A stretch of 64,000 bases of DNA from Mariniblastus sp. (GTDB lineage Bacteria > Planctomycetota > Planctomycetia > Pirellulales > Pirellulaceae). Location of the stretch: contig JAKVBG010000016.1 of NCBI GenBank assembly GCA_022447605.1, forward strand, positions 28,376 through 92,375. Reading direction: 5' to 3'. Within the stretch, counting starts at the first letter, position 1; the number at the start of each line of letters is the position of its first letter. Positions 4,346-42,857 of the stretch are shown here, one piece after another. The notes below the pieces were generated by a model. That model did not search any database and was not told where the DNA came from. It saw only the letters and a program-made list of their open reading frames with translations. Both the position numbers and the translations under genes were made by a program.

Positions 4346-5653
4346 TTAATCTACGACACGTTCATTGACTGGAAGTTCGTCGCGAGGCAGACCTTCGTTC
4401 TCGTAAGGCAGCGACTTGACGTAGCATACGAGTGCCCATATTTCTTCATTGGATAGCGTGGGAGACGAAGGCATCGGTGTCCCCTCAATTCCATTGGCGA
4501 TGCGTCGATAAACATCTGAGGGGAGGTTGCCACCTCGAAAGACGGGTATTCTCAGATTCCTGGGGATAATGGGTCGGGGGTACAGCGCACCTGCCTGGAG
4601 GAAGTCGTTGTACGACGCCGGATCGTCATAGCTGACACCTGCCGTCTTGAGCCAGTCATTGGTCCAGTCATCAAAATTGGTTGTCTGCCCGTCACCCAAC
4701 CCGGTTTCCCCGTGGCATTGAACACAGTTGGCCTTGCCGTAGAACAGCGATTTTCCCTGCAGGATCAGGTTGGAATGAGCGGGATGGTCAAGACGGAATG
4801 CGGCCGGTGCCATCTCGACGCTACTGATTTCGTCTTCCGGTTCGACCCAGCGCGAGAGTATGTCTTCACCCAGGTATTCGCCCACGACCATGTACATTTG
4901 AGCCTGGAATTCTTCCAGATTCTCCGCCTGGGTTTCCTCGTCGACTTGCTGGCCCTGGGGATCGTTCTCTTGCAGTAAATCGAAGTTCATGAACGGTTCG
5001 CCGTCGAGGTTGCCAAGTTCTGCAATCAAACGTCGTTCGTGTTGGCCTCGGATCGTCAAGTACTTGACGTAATCGACCAACGCGTCGACCTCCTCGTCGG
5101 TAAGCGTGCGAAACGATGGCATGGCGGTGCCGGGGATGCCGTTCCTGATGATCCGGTCCAGATCTTCGTCTGTTGGCATTCGCCGAAGGGGTGTCGATTT
5201 GAACTTGAATTTGCCCAATCGAAAATCACGTGGGTAGGGGGAGAGTGAGGGGGCGGTGCCACCGAAACCATCTCCGGTAATTCCGTGGCAGTGGGAACAG
5301 AGTTCCCGGTAGAGCCCTGCCGTGCGGCCAAGTTTGTCGGTCCTGACGGGACCGGCTGCCCGCTCCAGGTTCTCCAGTGAGAGGACCTCGTGGCCCGGGT
5401 CTTCCGCACCTAGGGGAAAGGGGAAACGGGGTTGGTCAGGTGTACCATACAGGGCGGTCAGGACGTTGCCGATCTCCTGCTGGTAATCAGCCGGGTACGT
5501 CTCTCCCTCCGAGAGATCGGTCTTTTCCTGTTTCAATAGCGCAACTCGATTGAAACGAAACTGCGGTTCTGGTGAAGAATGGCAGCCGGCAAGGATGGCT
5601 GGAATCAAAATGACGGCCAGCAAGCGGGATGTTTGCAGCAATACGTGTCGCAA
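4346..5653 (-). CDS. Di-heme c-type cytochrome lipoprotein
   Basis: Lipobox LAGC; CSHCH and CVQCH, each followed by a distal Met motif (PGTAMPSF, EGTPMPS); TTG start. Confidence 0.9.
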   Translation of the reverse strand: MRHVLLQTSRLLAVILIPAILAGCHSSPEPQFRFNRVALLKQEKTDLSEGETYPADYQQEIGNVLTALYGTPDQPRFPFPLGAEDPGHEVLSLENLERAAGPVRTDKLGRTAGLYRELCSHCHGITGDGFGGTAPSLSPYPRDFRLGKFKFKSTPLRRMPTDEDLDRIIRNGIPGTAMPSFRTLTDEEVDALVDYVKYLTIRGQHERRLIAELGNLDGEPFMNFDLLQENDPQGQQVDEETQAENLEEFQAQMYMVVGEYLGEDILSRWVEPEDEISSVEMAPAAFRLDHPAHSNLILQGKSLFYGKANCVQCHGETGLGDGQTTNFDDWTNDWLKTAGVSYDDPASYNDFLQAGALYPRPIIPRNLRIPVFRGGNLPSDVYRRIANGIEGTPMPSSPTLSNEEIWALVCYVKSLPYENEGLPRDELPVNERVVD

Positions 5654-9859: not shown

Positions 9860-10164
9860 GGCAGGCCGTCCAGAGTTGGCAGCTCGGTTTTCTCCCGATC
9901 CTGCGCCCAGCTGGTGGTGGTCTCGAGGTAACCGCCTCGTAGCATTGAGCAAGTCAGTTTTGATTTCGTCAGAATTTTCATTGATTAGTCATCGGTCTTA
10001 GTAGTTTTTGCTGCCATTCAGGAATTTCTTCAGAACGTTGGATCCCGCCATGCGTGTGTTGCCGGGGGAAATTCTAGCGAACCGACCGGTGGGTTGCTGT
10101 TCATGGTACGTTAACTGTTTAAAATCCGAATGAGAATGACAACCGGCAATTTTTGATCGAAGAA

Positions 10165-11604
10165 ATGCAAAACAAGACACTCGCTGATATTTCCCGCACC
10201 AAGACGATTGCCACGGTCGGACCCGCCTGCGAGTCGTTGCAGGTCCTGAAAGATCTGATCGACCGGGGCGTGGACGTTTTCCGGCTTAACATGGCCCATG
10301 GAGATCGGGAGAGCCACGAAACGGCCATCGCCCGCATTCGCCAGGCGGAAGACGACCTGCAGACCTCCGTCGCGATCCTGATCGACCTGGCCGGTCCGAA
10401 AATCCGTCTCGGTCAACTGGTCGAGGACCCGCGGGTAGTTGCCAATGGTCAGACCCTGACGTTTGTCCGGGGTGCCGAACCAAACTCTGCCGATGAGTTG
10501 ACCTGTACGTATGCTGGCCTCGTCGATGAAGTTCAGCCGGGCCAGGCAATTGTCCTGGCCGATGGTCTGGTCCGCCTGCAGGTGACGGGAAAAACGGAAG
10601 ATCGAGTCGAATGTGTCGTGGTCGATGGCGGCACGTTTCGCAGTCGCCAGGGGGTCAACCTGCCGGCCACGCAGCTCAGCATTCCTGCGCTGGGAGAAAA
10701 AGACCGGGATAATGCCATCTGGGCGACGAAGCAGTCAATCGATTTTGTCAGCCTCAGTTTCGTCCGGAACGCGTCCGAGATTGAGGAGTTGAAAGCGCTG
10801 CTGCGGGAACACGATTGCCAGGCGGGCGTGATCGCCAAAATCGAAAAACGGGAGGCGCTGGACAACCTGGAAGAGATCGTCCAGGCCTGTGATGGCGTGA
10901 TGGTTGCCCGTGGTGACTTGGGTGTTGAAATCGAGATTTACAAGACACCGGTCGCCCAGAAAAGAATTATCCACACCTGCCTGTTGCATCGCAAACCGGT
11001 GATTGTTGCTACACAGATGCTGGAGAGTATGCATACGTCCAAACAGCCGACGCGTGCCGAGGTCAGTGATGTGGCCAATGCAATCCTGGATGGTGCGGAC
11101 GCCTGCATGCTGTCGGGGGAAACTGCGATTGGACAATACCCGGCCGAGGCGGTCACCATGATGCAGCAGATCATGCTGGAAACGGAGCAATTGCTGAAAC
11201 GATCCGCCTCGAAGATTTCGGGCCCCGACGATTCCCATCAGAACGACGTTGCCGAGGCCGTGATGTTCGGCGCGGCGCAAATTGCCCAGCAGCTGGAGGC
11301 CAGGATCGTCGTGATATCGAGTTCGACCGGGGAAACTGCCTTGATCAAATCGAAACAGCGCGATTTTATCCCGACCGTTTGCCTGACCCACCACCGGTCG
11401 GTGGCCCGTTTCATCTGCCTCTACTGGGGAGTGATCCCTGTTTGTACCGATCAACCCCACCCGCCAGAACAGTTCCGGGCCTTTGTCAACGAGTGGGCAA
11501 AGTCCGTCGCCATGGGCCAGATCGGGGACCCAATCGTGATGGTCACCGACAACCAGTGGATGCCCGATGTCCACGACAATATTCTGGTCGGTCGCATCTC
11601 CTGA
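10165..11604 (+). CDS. pyk: Pyruvate kinase
   Basis: TKTIATVGPA, RLNMAHG, DLAGPKIR, AKIE, GVMVARGDLGVE, ATQMLESM, MLSGETA; ORF opens at TTG 10153. Confidence 0.99.
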   Translation: MQNKTLADISRTKTIATVGPACESLQVLKDLIDRGVDVFRLNMAHGDRESHETAIARIRQAEDDLQTSVAILIDLAGPKIRLGQLVEDPRVVANGQTLTFVRGAEPNSADELTCTYAGLVDEVQPGQAIVLADGLVRLQVTGKTEDRVECVVVDGGTFRSRQGVNLPATQLSIPALGEKDRDNAIWATKQSIDFVSLSFVRNASEIEELKALLREHDCQAGVIAKIEKREALDNLEEIVQACDGVMVARGDLGVEIEIYKTPVAQKRIIHTCLLHRKPVIVATQMLESMHTSKQPTRAEVSDVANAILDGADACMLSGETAIGQYPAEAVTMMQQIMLETEQLLKRSASKISGPDDSHQNDVAEAVMFGAAQIAQQLEARIVVISSSTGETALIKSKQRDFIPTVCLTHHRSVARFICLYWGVIPVCTDQPHPPEQFRAFVNEWAKSVAMGQIGDPIVMVTDNQWMPDVHDNILVGRIS

Positions 11605-11643
11605 CTGCCGTGTAGCTATTTCGATCAGGCGCGCGACAGGCAC

Positions 11644-11670
11644 AAAAAAACCCGCCGGTGAGGGCGGGTT
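11644..11670 (-). terminator. Rho-independent terminator (U-run on the minus strand; may also stop pyk)
   Basis: Minus strand AACCCGCC-CTCACC-GGCGGGTT running into TTTTTTT. Confidence 0.85.
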
Positions 11671-11897
11671 GTTTCGTCGTGAAAAACTGGTGGGCCGAGT
11701 TCGTATTTCGGCGATCGTTGGTCACGGCATGGTGTGACGGTTCCTTAGATTCACGAGTGACGTCCCTGTCTGAAACGTTGGCCCAATCCGGAGGATGTGG
11801 TTTCTCCCGCTCGGCTTCCCGTGGCCAAATCCCGTGAGTGATCTGGCACGATTTGCCCGGGGTCCACATGCGCCGTTTCGAACGTCGTCTTGGGCAT
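11644..11897 (-). ncRNA. Candidate ~250-nt small RNA (sigma54 promoter, eight GGA motifs, own terminator)
   Basis: Bounded by a -24/-12 promoter at 11908-11923 and the terminator at 11644-11670; no convincing protein ORF; nested complementary segments. Confidence 0.55.
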
Positions 11898-11907
11898 CCC
11901 GATCTAA

Positions 11908-11923
11908 AGCACTTGCCGTGCCA
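11908..11923 (-). promoter_or_regulatory. Sigma54 (-24/-12) promoter
   Basis: Minus strand TGGCACG-GCAA-GTGCT; GG (11922-11921) and GC (11910-11909) exactly 12 nt apart; one mismatch to TGGCACG-N4-TTGCW. Confidence 0.65.
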
Positions 11924-12069
11924 AACCGTGGCAAACCGTGGCAAAACAGCTGGGCCGCCATTTTACGACGCGCGGCTCGGTGCGGTGACTCGCCTTGTCT
12001 GTACTTTTGCTAATCGATTGTAGGAATTACCGATTGACTGCTTCCGCTTGACGGGTGCTGCCCATCACT

Positions 12070-12507
12070 TCAGGTGAGGTTTTTCAGCAAGCTGGATGTG
12101 ATAGCAGCAAACACGTCCCGCTTCTCATCGAATTCCCGACTCTCTGCCTGGCAACAGACGACCAAGGTCTGTCCTGGCATCGAGATGACGCTCAGGTTGG
12201 CCGTCACGAGGAAGTCGAGGCAATAGAAAAAAGCATCGGTACCGATGCTGGGATAAACCTCGTCCAGCAGGCTGGTCGAAACCTGGAATTCGACGTCCTG
12301 ATACTGGTCGACCAATCCCTGTTTCGCGTTGTCCAAAAGTTCCGCGGCATCGACATCGGGGGGGAACACGACCAGCGTCCAAAATCCACCCTCGGGGGTT
12401 TCCAGTGAGACTTCCCCCGAAAGTGGGTCGTCTTCAAACGTGTCACTGAGTTGCCACGTCTCGGGATAGGTAAATTCGATCTGGTCTCGTTTGAAGGTGG
12501 ATGTCAT
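12070..12507 (-). CDS. Hypothetical acidic protein (possibly PsbP/Mog1-like fold)
   Basis: Protein-like ORF from MTSTFKRDQIEFTYPETWQL; the fold guess rests only on the FxYPxxW start pattern. Confidence 0.65.
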   Translation of the reverse strand: MTSTFKRDQIEFTYPETWQLSDTFEDDPLSGEVSLETPEGGFWTLVVFPPDVDAAELLDNAKQGLVDQYQDVEFQVSTSLLDEVYPSIGTDAFFYCLDFLVTANLSVISMPGQTLVVCCQAESREFDEKRDVFAAITSSLLKNLT

Positions 12508-12687
12508 GGTCTTGCTAGCAAATAGGTATTGGACGTCTGTTCCTTTATATCCGATTCCATCCGGATGAACATTGCTGGCAATTCGGATCATGAGGAATGA
12601 GTTGAGATTCCGATATAGATACAACAGGCTGTGGGTGTTATGGTTGGCCGCTGCGCTGATGACGGGTGACTCTCCGAGGAAGAAAAG

Positions 12688-13626
12688 TTGAGCCAATTGT
12701 TGAACCTGAGATTGCGAAAGCTGACCCGTGGGTCAATCTTGGTTCTGGCATTGGCCGTCGTCGCTTCTACCGGCTGCCACGCCTTTCGGCCATTCCAGCA
12801 GGTCAACAACTCATTGGCCGATGCGCGACTTTGGGAACAGGGGGGACGGGAAGCCCTTTCTCATGGAAATATTGACGAGGCAAAAAACTGCCTCCGAAGA
12901 GCGATCAACAACGCGCCGGGTGATCGACAGATTCGCGAGCAATTGGCTGATATCTGCATGGAGCGAGATGAATATCCGGAAGCGATTGCCGAGTTGACAC
13001 GAGCGGTGGATCTGGCTGAAGAGGATGCCGAATTGCGGGTCAAGTTGGGACGCGCCTACTTGAAATGCGGGAAGCTGATTCCTGCCCAACGACAGGCCGA
13101 GTTGGCCCTGGAGACTGACCGGCAGTTGGCCTCGGCCTGGGAATTGTGTGGCCAGACCCATTGGGCCAAGAAAGAATTACCGGCAGCGGTGGCTGATTTG
13201 CAACGGGCTTTGAGCATTGAGCCAAAACGGCGCGGTGTCCAGGTCCAGATTGCCTGTCTACACCGGCAAATGGGCGAATCGAAGCGCGCCCTGTCAGGTA
13301 TTGAGCAGCTGCTGAGTCAATATCCGGATGGCCAGGAGCCACAGGATGCTCTTCTCCTGCAGGGAGTTGTGTTGATCGATCTGCATCAGTACTCATCGGC
13401 CATCGAACAGTTGCAGATGGCCGTCAACCGTAGCGATGCGACCTGCGAGGCGTTTGTTCAGTTATCACGGGCCCAATTCCTGGCCGGGCAACCATCACTG
13501 GCCCGGTCCACCTTGACCCGTGGATTGGAGAGGTACCCGGCAGAAGCGAAGTTGACCGCCCTGTTGAACCAGTTGCAGGAAATCGACAGCGGCCATGTGG
13601 CGACCACCGGATCATTGAAGCGTTGA
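12688..13626 (+). CDS. Tetratricopeptide-repeat protein, probable lipoprotein
   Basis: Signal-like N-terminus ending STGC; repeated helical A/L/G TPR patterns; TTG start. Confidence 0.8.
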   Translation: MSQLLNLRLRKLTRGSILVLALAVVASTGCHAFRPFQQVNNSLADARLWEQGGREALSHGNIDEAKNCLRRAINNAPGDRQIREQLADICMERDEYPEAIAELTRAVDLAEEDAELRVKLGRAYLKCGKLIPAQRQAELALETDRQLASAWELCGQTHWAKKELPAAVADLQRALSIEPKRRGVQVQIACLHRQMGESKRALSGIEQLLSQYPDGQEPQDALLLQGVVLIDLHQYSSAIEQLQMAVNRSDATCEAFVQLSRAQFLAGQPSLARSTLTRGLERYPAEAKLTALLNQLQEIDSGHVATTGSLKR

Positions 13627-41444: not shown

Positions 41445-42857
41445 CTACCGCAGTTCATATTCGTTGAGCTTGCGATACAGATTTCGCTCACTGATTCCCA
41501 GAATCGTCGAAGTCTCTTCACGGTTTCCGCCTGTCAGTTTTAACGTATTCTCGATGGCCCAGCGTTCGATCTCTTTGAGGGAGCGGCCGACCAGGTCGGA
41601 GTTGTCTTCTAGTGATATCATTGCCGACGGCCCGGTCGATTCGCTGACAGGTTGCTCGTCGATCAAGTCGGGCGAAAGGTCATCCACCCCCAGGATCCCG
41701 TCCAGGTCCATGACGACCAGGCTCTCAACCACGTTTTTCAACTGCCTGACATTTCCTTTCCAGTCAAAGTCAAGCATCCACCGTCGCAGTTCCTGCGTGA
41801 ATGTTTTCGTCTGTTTGTGATTTTTCTTGTTCGCCTGTTTCCTGAAATGGTCCGCCAGGGGCAGGATGTCATCTCGTCGCCGGGAAAGTGGATCCAGATG
41901 GACGGTCACGATTTTCAGCCGAAAATAGAGATCGCTCCGAAACCGGCCGGCTTCTACCTCCGCTTCGAGGTCCTTGTTCGTTGCCGCCAACACACGGACG
42001 TTGACGTGGATCGGTTTGTTGTCGCCAACGCGTGTTATTTCCCGTTCTTCCAGGACGCGCAGCAATTTGATTTGGGTTGGCATCGGCATGTCGCCGACTT
42101 CGTCCAGGAACAACGTGCCACCGTTGGCGTACTCAAACTTGCCTTGCCGATCGGTAATGGCATCGGTAAAGGCACCTTTGACATGCCCAAACAACTCGCT
42201 TTCTACCAGATGCTCGGCAACGGCTGCTGTATTGATTGCCACGAACGGCTTTTTCTTGCGCGGGCTGTTCTGGTGGATTGCCTGGGCAATCACATCTTTA
42301 CCTGTCCCGGTTTCACCCGTGATCAATACACCGGCGTCGGTGGGGGCGATGCGGCGCACCCGATCGACGACCCGGTTCATGCTGTCACTTGCGTAAACCA
42401 GGTTCTCGAATCCGAATTTTTCGTCCAGCCGACGTTGCAACTGCTGATTGGTCTGTCGCAATCTGACGGAGTCTGCCGCTTTCGAAGCGACGACCTGGAG
42501 TCGCTTGGGCGTAATTGGTTTCTCGAGAAAATTGAAGGCGCCCTGCCGCATGGCATCCACGGCGCGAGGTACCGTGGCGTGACCGGTTACCATGATGACT
42601 TCACAGTCCGGCTGCGTTTCCTTGGCCAGACCCAGGATGTCCATTCCGTCGACATCATTCATCATCAGGTCGGTAACGATGATATGGTAGATGTTCTCCT
42701 GGATCAGTTCCGAGCCCTCCTGGCCGGACGTGGCGCAGGTGCATTCGAACCCGATCCGGTCAAGGCTCTCGGTCATTGCCCGGGCGAGGTCCTTGTCGTT
42801 ATCGACAATCAGCACACTGATCGCTTGGATTTTTGTATTTTCTTGCTCTTCGTCCAT
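41445..42857 (-). CDS. Sigma54-dependent response regulator (NtrC family: REC-AAA+-HTH)
   Basis: Receiver VDND...TDLMM...FLEKP; GETGTGKD, ESELFGH, GAFTDA, LFLDEVG, RSDLYFRL, GNVRQL; C-terminal HTH. Confidence 0.96.
   Translation of the reverse strand: MDEEQENTKIQAISVLIVDNDKDLARAMTESLDRIGFECTCATSGQEGSELIQENIYHIIVTDLMMNDVDGMDILGLAKETQPDCEVIMVTGHATVPRAVDAMRQGAFNFLEKPITPKRLQVVASKAADSVRLRQTNQQLQRRLDEKFGFENLVYASDSMNRVVDRVRRIAPTDAGVLITGETGTGKDVIAQAIHQNSPRKKKPFVAINTAAVAEHLVESELFGHVKGAFTDAITDRQGKFEYANGGTLFLDEVGDMPMPTQIKLLRVLEEREITRVGDNKPIHVNVRVLAATNKDLEAEVEAGRFRSDLYFRLKIVTVHLDPLSRRRDDILPLADHFRKQANKKNHKQTKTFTQELRRWMLDFDWKGNVRQLKNVVESLVVMDLDGILGVDDLSPDLIDEQPVSESTGPSAMISLEDNSDLVGRSLKEIERWAIENTLKLTGGNREETSTILGISERNLYRKLNEYELR

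Follow-up and report, generated by a model that had tools for sequence, protein, structure and literature searches.

The stretch of DNA examined here, in the following called the window, covers 64,000 nucleotides of contig JAKVBG010000016.1 from Mariniblastus sp. (assembly GCA_022447605.1), a member of the Pirellulaceae in the planctomycete order Pirellulales. A gap of 465 bp separates the pyruvate kinase gene pyk from a hypothetical gene on the minus strand (12696–12070), and this gap holds a predicted small RNA gene of approximately 255 nt (11643–11897, minus strand). The gene would extend from a predicted transcription start (+1) at 11897 (+/-2) to the end of the U-run of its terminator, and all features of the RNA are located on the minus strand. 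An earlier, sequence-only reading of the window had proposed a sigma-54-dependent, GGA-rich small RNA at this place, possibly acting as a sponge for the RNA-binding protein CsrA. Our analysis paints a partly different picture, in which the most conserved elements are a promoter, an upstream palindrome and a three-way junction.

The sigma-54 (-24/-12) promoter, TGGCACGgcaaGTGCT, lies at 11923–11908, with the GG at 11922–11921, the GC at 11910–11909 and the correct spacing of ten bases between them. It fits the class TGGCACG-N4-TTGCW. Such promoters are rare in this genome: TGGCACG-N4-NTGCW occurs at only 12 sites on both strands of the 5 Mb, TGGCACGgcaaGTGCT being one of these, and by a simple weighted score the promoter ranks within the 21 best-scoring sites. 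At the other end, an intrinsic terminator (11643–11670) is formed by an 8-bp stem with six G-C pairs (11670–11649), followed by UUUUUUU, with the U-run reaching to about 11643. The sequence-only reading had described a near-consensus -24/-12 promoter on the minus strand, a start near 11897 and a strong terminator about 250 nt further downstream, and all of these hold. The RNA between them has a minimum free energy (MFE) of -91.1 kcal/mol (z = -2.56).

The promoter is conserved in relatives. A high-scoring -24/-12 element is found on the same strand, 54–277 nt upstream of the conserved RNA core described below, in 33 of 36 and in 50 of 64 homologous loci. Several loci without a detected element end at contig borders, and approximately nine out of ten copies with intact flanks have one. 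By chance, such a site is expected at a rate of about 0.056 per kb and strand, or about 2.5% per 450 nt. Promoters of this type are silent until an enhancer-binding ATPase acts on them. The genome encodes rpoN (one Sigma54_DBD gene) and eight full Sigma54_activat genes, and the RNA gene presumably depends on sigma-54 in vivo. One of the eight activator genes is located in the window itself (41901–42398, minus strand), about 30 kb from the RNA; no link between the two was found.

A candidate activator site is present upstream of the promoter. The enhancer-like palindrome cGGTAAttcCTACAA (12032–12018, minus strand) begins 109 nt upstream of the -24 element, and an alignment of the four closest sequences first revealed it as a block of conservation located some 100 nt upstream of the promoter. 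Its family consensus is TTGTAA-N3-TTACAA. With at most two mismatches in the 12 positions, this consensus accompanies 65 of 70 family promoters, once each, at -97 to -217 (median -129), while equally good matches occur in 5.8% of random segments. Of 150 genomes sampled from the order, 16 have the exact palindrome together with TGGCAC at the right distance, none of them twice, and the reversed-pattern control had no occurrences in these 150. Ten of these 16 places precede the RNA core. As for the other six, a related 5' hairpin follows in two of them, where no core could be detected, another two are truncated by a contig end, and the last two do not have a proper -12 element. Among the other promoters of the Mariniblastus genome, none with the palindrome at up to three mismatches stood above noise. 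Judged from the sequence, palindrome and promoter are arranged as in an enhancer-dependent promoter that has its own dedicated activator, and an activator protein would be expected to bind at the palindrome. The sequence-only reading had confined itself to the region downstream and missed this site.

The part of the RNA that defines the family is a core of 77 nt (11678–11755, minus strand), delimited by alignments and by two covariance models, R1 and R2. Downstream of the promoter the homologous loci share CGUGAAUCUAAGGCA, two hairpins, GCCAGUUUUUCACG and the terminator. The core folds into a three-way junction composed of a 6-bp helix P1, a 5x5 internal loop (UCUAA/AGUUU), a helix P1b of 2–3 bp, and the hairpins P2 and P3, with near-invariant sequences on the 5' side (GUGAAUCUWAGG) and the 3' side (CC-N3-UUUUCAC). 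This conserved block, 11755–11678, had been overlooked by the sequence-only reading. R1 was built from nine similar sequences with a hand-written structure, the window not being among them, and it matches the window with 37.2 bits (E=1.9e-7). Among the loci compared it gave 29 matches, 27 of which look real. The broader R2 (25 building sequences, including the likely false L041 and L043) gives 57.3 bits for the window (E=1.9e-10), which is itself one of its building sequences, and an R2 search found the core to be single-copy in this genome. Three model matches, L041, L043 (inside coding sequence) and L112 (in a metagenome-assembled genome (MAG) of Cohnella), look false and are excluded from the counts.

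Compensatory covariation was detected in all four helices. This comparison across homologous loci had been suggested with the sequence-only reading. In the alignment of the R1 matches, 16 of 19 base pairs show compensatory changes on both sides, and 93.9% of the cells are paired, compared to 27–58% after sliding the 3' partners by one to three columns. A second set of 63 further sequences gave a similar result, with compensatory changes in all ten pairs of P2 and P3 and 95.3% of cells paired, compared to 29–58% when slid; in this set P1 was fixed by the search pattern, so that P1 covariation was judged from the first set only. The alignment was fitted to a covariance model, which flatters the structure. 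We nevertheless consider the structure real, because the slid controls are far lower, because P1 variants can be read directly in the sequences (CGUGAA/UUCACG, CGCGAA/UUCGCG, CAUGAA/UUCAUG, UGCGAA/UUCGCA and GGUGAA/UUCACC), and because the unconstrained MFE fold of the window RNA yields the same three-way junction. MAFFT combined with RNAalifold on all sequences recovered only P1 and P1b, and the inner hairpins required the model-based alignment.

The RNA is present in environmental RNA libraries. The assembly is a marine MAG, and two DNase-treated marine metatranscriptomes from one study contain one matching contig each, of 161 and 162 nt, 95–99% identical to 11895–11733 and with depths of 10 and 35. 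No contig in these two metatranscriptomes covers pyk or the upstream gene. Assembled contigs reveal neither the strand nor the exact ends, and the uncovered part is counted as evidence of nothing; the same is true for two further RNA runs from another study, in which no cover was obtained. The contigs end 2 nt from the predicted start which, together with the lack of flanking cover, fits a discrete and abundant small RNA. The variant seen in the contigs differs from the window in the 5' domain by five substitutions and one deletion and retains all seven GGA motifs, and its changes G51A and C74U are readable as a compensatory pair in the apical stem. The earlier suggestion of a stand-alone small RNA under sigma-54 control is strongly supported by the conserved promoter, the conserved palindrome, the presence of rpoN and eight activators, and these RNA contigs.

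Members of the family were found in about 100 Pirellulales genomes. By taxonomic sampling, the core is present in 18 of 141 genomes of the family Pirellulaceae and in 24 of 150 genomes of the order, distributed over 11 of 30 families, one of which has it in 10 out of 10, while 150 genomes of the phylum from outside the order yielded none. The large genome scans used strict filters, and their counts are lower bounds. At the genus level, at least 19 of 29 loci have the core. A pattern scan with one genome per species gave 68 places, 64 of which pass the model. About 62 of the 68 are in MAGs labelled Pirellulaceae, Pirellulales, Thermoguttaceae, Mariniblastus, Rhodopirellula or Blastopirellula, a count that also includes MAGs loosely labelled 'Planctomycetaceae/Planctomycetia'. 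By a crude test, 46 of 64 other loci have a hairpin with a T-run after the core. The core keeps its own promoter and terminator in either orientation to its neighbours, and is an independent gene.

Known RNA families do not account for these sequences. Rfam searches, with the gathering thresholds and with E-values up to 10, returned only terminator-like noise and tRNAs for the window and 12 homologous loci. The window matches no model of CsrB, CsrC, RsmX/Y/Z, 6S or Qrr, in contrast to the kinship with sponge or 6S RNAs considered earlier. A search at the DNA level retrieved a single syntenic relative (G008), and the comparison was then anchored on the neighbouring protein. In the literature that we searched, no regulatory RNA of planctomycetes had been characterised. 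By sequence comparison, the RNA appears to be the first described member of an order-wide Pirellulales family, confined to this order as far as searched.

Between promoter and core lies a variable 5' domain (11781–11895, minus strand), predicted to fold into a long irregular hairpin with most of the GGA motifs. Its length across the family is between about 30 and about 250 nt, and it is alignable only among close relatives. Even the four closest sequences keep only the 5' end CCAAGACGACGUUC, the apical loop and a few blocks. The nested pairings proposed for this domain by the sequence-only reading are recovered in part: AUGUGG/CCACAU and the apical stem are in the MFE fold, whereas GACG/CGUC and GAAACG/CGUUUC are absent from it, and the nearest relative has no compensating changes for the latter two.

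Just upstream of the core, 4 nt before P1, lies a small hairpin, P0 (GAC-AGGGAC-GUC, 11759–11770, minus strand), with a 3-bp stem and an A-N-GGA-N hexaloop. CsrA selects, in systematic evolution of ligands by exponential enrichment, the consensus RUACARGGAUGU, preferably with the GGA in a hairpin loop (PMC4347634). P0 agrees with this consensus in 10 of 12 positions, including the complete ACA and GGA, so that one ACA-N-GGA hairpin is present in the RNA. In the family, P0 has the form GAC-ANGGAY-GYC, 3–4 nt before P1, and 22 of 36 loci have a GGA at -8 to -10. Of these 36 loci, 11 contain CANGGANG, compared to 0.6% of random 30-nt windows; in 73 non-redundant family 5' regions CANGGANG occurs 19 times and its reverse complement once. 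Potential partners are available: a search for csrA, as proposed earlier, detected six paralogues (L064–L069) in the 5-Mb genome, two of which (L065 and L066) have -24/-12-like sites 64–66 nt before the start codon. Planctomycetota commonly have CsrA (PMC13443453), and sigma-54 promoters before csrA have been reported for Pirellula and are enriched in Planctomycetia (PMC12316311). For the Pirellulaceae branch, these sequence features make contact with CsrA a plausible but tentative suggestion.

The following mechanism would best explain the observations. Sigma-54 polymerase would transcribe a minus-strand RNA of about 255 nt (11897 to about 11643) from the promoter at 11923–11908, activated by an enhancer-binding protein that most likely sits on the palindrome some 110–130 bp upstream, and transcription would stop at the intrinsic terminator right after the conserved core. 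The RNA would then be the main, and possibly the sole, direct output of a conserved pathway leading from a sensor through an activator and sigma-54 to the RNA. It might be the bottleneck of one signalling pathway, like Qrr in quorum sensing, because site and promoter occur together about once per genome. Its role would be to relay the signal at the post-transcriptional level, in the manner of the proteobacterial RNAs Qrr, GlmY and CrcZ, and in this lineage the most likely mode of action would be protein binding rather than long base-pairing. The leading candidate for a partner would be one of the six CsrA paralogues, bound at P0 and perhaps at further GGA sites of the 5' domain. The outcome we propose for such contact is a low-valency decoy or a CsrA-dependent RNA, rather than a CsrB-like sponge with many sites. 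As a whole, that is, a structured RNA of a new family, driven by sigma-54 and an activator, with CsrA as candidate partner, we give this explanation a probability of roughly 0.62. Any role of CsrA, suggested by sequence features, is a more doubtful part of it. A more specific version, in which the Pirellulaceae RNA captures a CsrA paralogue through P0 and the junction serves order-wide as a second module for binding a protein or a ligand, is more speculative still.

Several observations weigh against this explanation, or against its CsrA part. The transcript evidence consists of assembled contigs from a single study, and both RNA ends are predicted ones. The palindrome of the window has three mismatches in 12 positions and is the poorest of the family, its close relatives L109 and L141 having two. 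No activator gene adjoins the RNA in about 100 loci, and one is nearby in a single locus only (L050). Concerning CsrA, the sequence-only reading had counted eight GGA motifs against a chance expectation of about three. The numbers stand, since the first 160 nt contain seven, or eight with one straddling +1, and genome-wide frequency predicts 3.0; the excess over local composition does not. Dinucleotide-preserving shuffles of the same stretch contain 5.4 +/- 1.5 GGA (P=0.25), which indicates that the enrichment is mostly a matter of local composition. Moreover, only 34 of 140 GGA motifs of the family are predicted to be mostly unpaired, and P0 is missing in 14 of 36 loci and, in a second set, in 45 of 64, among them all of the Thermoguttaceae-type group. 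In the MFE fold of the window, the GGGA of P0 pairs with an upstream CGUUUC. The universal invariant junction has AAGGC and not GGA in most members, with its GG paired in P1b. Finally, no csrA gene was found beside the RNA in the loci examined.

How the RNA acts could be read in other ways. A classic sponge of the CsrB/RsmZ type, in which each of about eight GGA motifs binds CsrA and several dimers are sequestered, was the favoured idea of the sequence-only reading. The GGA count relative to genome frequency, the textbook CsrA hairpin P0, the six csrA genes and the retention of all seven GGA motifs in the strain variant seen as RNA are in line with it. However, the count is not significant against the shuffles, and the motifs are not conserved in relatives: the nearest relative (62% identity in the neighbouring protein) has two GGA in the 5' part, and the family ranges from zero to six with a median of two. 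Furthermore, in many members the core is preceded by a mere 30 nt or so, pairing is predicted for the majority of GGA motifs, and neither a CsrB/Rsm match in Rfam nor a set of many conserved GGA motifs was found, which leaves the sponge weakly supported and, in our opinion, unlikely. A base-pairing riboregulator similar to Qrr, whose junction AAUCUAAGG or 5' end would pair with mRNAs, is a better competitor, though still an improbable one. The RNA follows the Qrr layout of activator site, sigma-54 promoter and short terminated transcript, about nine of its junction nucleotides are invariant, and close relatives keep the first 14 nt at the 5' end. Against pairing, the complement of the junction, CCTTAGATT, occurs only five times in the genome, none of nine CCTTAGAT sites precedes the start of a long open reading frame (ORF), and a search of the genome for Hfq found none. 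In addition, the 5' end is not conserved across the family, and the invariant nucleotides belong to an internal loop between covarying helices, a position that fits a protein or tertiary contact better than a seed. From genome length alone about 38 occurrences of CCTTAGATT would be expected in G000, the Mariniblastus genome, and such words seem to be generally avoided there.

Three further readings concern the nature of the transcript. It could be a 3' extension processed from the mRNA of the upstream gene, or a partner of that gene's protein, which has a PsbP/DcrB-type fold. In 36 of 64 loci, belonging to several families, and in most genus-level loci, this gene is the immediate upstream neighbour of the RNA on the same strand. 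We consider this reading improbable, given that a conserved promoter and enhancer site of the RNA's own lie between the two genes, that the RNA is inverted relative to the protein gene in L059, L060 and G081, and that the RNA contigs stop short of the protein gene. The fold is not a known RNA-binding fold either, and the protein is present in 114 of 121 family genomes, the RNA in far fewer. A 6S-like RNA, which would mimic an open promoter and bind RNA polymerase, had been offered as an alternative in the sequence-only reading, and the 5' domain of the window can indeed form an irregular rod, with no 6S match of Rfam elsewhere in the genome. Yet there is no RF00013 match here either, the rod is not conserved and has no place in short members with about 30 nt before the core, and instead of a rod with a central bubble the family conserves a three-way junction; we regard a 6S function as very improbable. 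The same applies to a leaderless mRNA for a 48-aa protein. The reading frame proposed earlier (MPKTTFET..., 11751–11897, minus strand, from the ORF listing) exists and begins exactly at the predicted +1, but we do not regard it as a gene. Its ATG is replaced in two of the three closest relatives (by CTA in L141 and by TGT in L035), a 2-nt indel shifts the frame in L109, L035 stops after 17 codons, and stops are also found in G008. The short family members have no room for it, no Pfam match was obtained, and conservation is at the level of nucleotides and structure.

Turning back to the sigma-54-driven structured RNA, its wiring is like that of Qrr, GlmY and CrcZ, and it is a member of none of these families nor of the Csr/Rsm sponges. 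With the Qrr RNAs of Vibrionaceae, controlled by LuxO, it shares the short, terminated, stand-alone format, the sigma-54 promoter and a palindrome about 100–130 bp upstream, and it also appears to be the principal target of its activator site. The LuxO site upstream of the qrr genes is a 13-bp palindrome, TTGCAWWWTGCAA, at distances similar to those of the palindrome here (PMC10162802). Unlike Qrr, our RNA is single-copy, it has neither sequence or structure similarity to Qrr nor an Rfam match, and its genome yielded no Hfq. Its core is a three-way junction, whereas Qrr has four stem-loops with a conserved seed, and a search near gene starts gave no convincing seed or targets. The comparison with GlmY of Enterobacteriaceae, a decoy for RapZ controlled by GlrR, is similar: both have sigma-54/activator wiring and a structured core ending in a terminator, and their folds and sequences are unrelated. 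GlmY promoters carry several activator sites, while those of the new family have one palindrome each. GlmY acts by protein binding and not by pairing (PMC4347634).

Likewise, CrcZ/CrcY of Pseudomonas, controlled by CbrB and acting as sponges in the Hfq/Crc system, combine sigma-54/activator wiring with an RNA that, in the case of CrcZ, sequesters protein. In contrast to them, the Mariniblastus RNA is devoid of the A-rich AANAANAA motifs, has no Rfam match, and comes from a genome in which no Hfq was found. Like the CsrB/CsrC and RsmX/Y/Z sponges, the RNA has a hairpin with a looped GGA in agreement with the CsrA consensus, and its organism has many CsrA paralogues. The promoters of these sponges depend on GacA/UvrY. 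The promoter here is of the sigma-54 type, the core is not based on GGA, and much of the family lacks the CsrA hairpin. Moreover, CsrB and CsrC have 9–18 or more sites (PMC4347634), compared to the family's zero to six GGA with a median of two. As few as two sites suffice for CsrA binding in the case of McaS (PMC4347634).

The family is relevant beyond this locus, as the large sigma-54 and CsrA repertoires of planctomycetes lack an explanation. It offers an order-wide RNA with a defined promoter, activator site, fold and candidate protein-binding hairpin, each of which can be mutated separately, and the identity of the activator would reveal the signal. If the proposed decoy role were true, this would be the first CsrA-antagonist RNA outside the proteobacteria, wired to the same sigma-54 that also drives some csrA genes. 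Binding of CsrA would further show CsrA control in a phylum without known sponge RNAs or their regulators.

The neighbourhood of the RNA is partly conserved. The pyk gene (10153–11604, plus strand; PF00224, E=1.7e-107) is convergent with the RNA and adjoins it in 16 of 64 loci, that is, in only a part of the family. The terminator of the RNA sits 40 nt past the pyk stop codon, which is on the opposite strand, and a moderately U-rich tract follows there; judging from this arrangement, the terminator may end both convergent transcripts. On the other side, the 208-codon ORF at 12070–12696 (minus strand) probably has its true start at Met64 (ATG at 12507), because the conserved part of the alignment begins there. 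This leaves a cytoplasmic protein of 145 aa (12070–12507, minus strand). Its predicted structure has a PsbP/DcrB/Mog1/Eag-type fold, with a predicted local distance difference test score (pLDDT) of 93.9 and matches to PsbP, DcrB, Eag and Mog1 at template modelling scores of 0.5–0.65; the fold from the single sequence was poor (pLDDT 55). Searches of Pfam, NCBIfam and PDB sequences were blank for this protein. It was detected in 114 of 121 sampled family genomes and in 55 of 61 genus genomes. Where protein gene and pyk flank the gap, the gap measures 330–940 bp, and nearly every gap contains a same-strand -24/-12 element. The 36 of 64 loci with the protein gene directly 5' of the RNA on the same strand are spread across the order; in the three inverted loci (L059, L060 and G081) the RNA is on the pyk strand. 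We treat this linkage simply as a conserved neighbourhood.

Some observations concern the promoter region and individual copies. In the window, three tandem 10-nt units, TTTGCCACGG, TTTGCCACGG and TTTGGCACGG, can be read directly in the sequence at 11916–11945 (minus strand). The third unit, TTTGGCACGG, forms the -24 element, and the two TTTGCCACGG units are one base short of being extra -24 boxes. The units are not conserved as a repeat in relatives, with a partial second unit in the close relative L109. At L177 (G261:C3), a perfect CsrA-type hairpin, GACGACAUGGAUGUCGUC, takes the place of the RNA core downstream of the palindrome and a sigma-54 promoter, and it overlaps the AUG of a 130-codon ORF.

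Two core copies each were found in G294 (C13 and C93) and in G343 (C61 and C64), the latter pair with identical scores, so that it may be an assembly duplicate. A contig in a MAG labelled Chloroflexia (L147) carries the full Thermoguttaceae-type set of palindrome, promoter, core and terminator, plus a PsbP-fold gene, and is probably a planctomycete contig that was wrongly binned. The Thermoguttaceae-type copies, for example L100, L107, L116, L142, L143, L144, L147, L148 and L152, share a loop (U)UCCCGCA, which sits both in the 5' hairpin and in the terminator hairpin, and several copies of this type have ACAGGAUA near the 5' end. In L059 and L060 (G001 and G164) and in G081, a second box, GGAAUCUAAGGGA / GGAACCCAAGGGA, lies between core and terminator. 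Finally, a look-alike of the RNA front end is present in the Mariniblastus genome itself, on the minus strand of contig C133 of G000 (about 4735–4815 of the reverse complement). It has the order CAAGGGAAUC-GGUGAAUCUAAGGCC, one hairpin and UUUUCCCC, without the three-way junction and without a sigma-54 site, and may be a degenerate paralogue.

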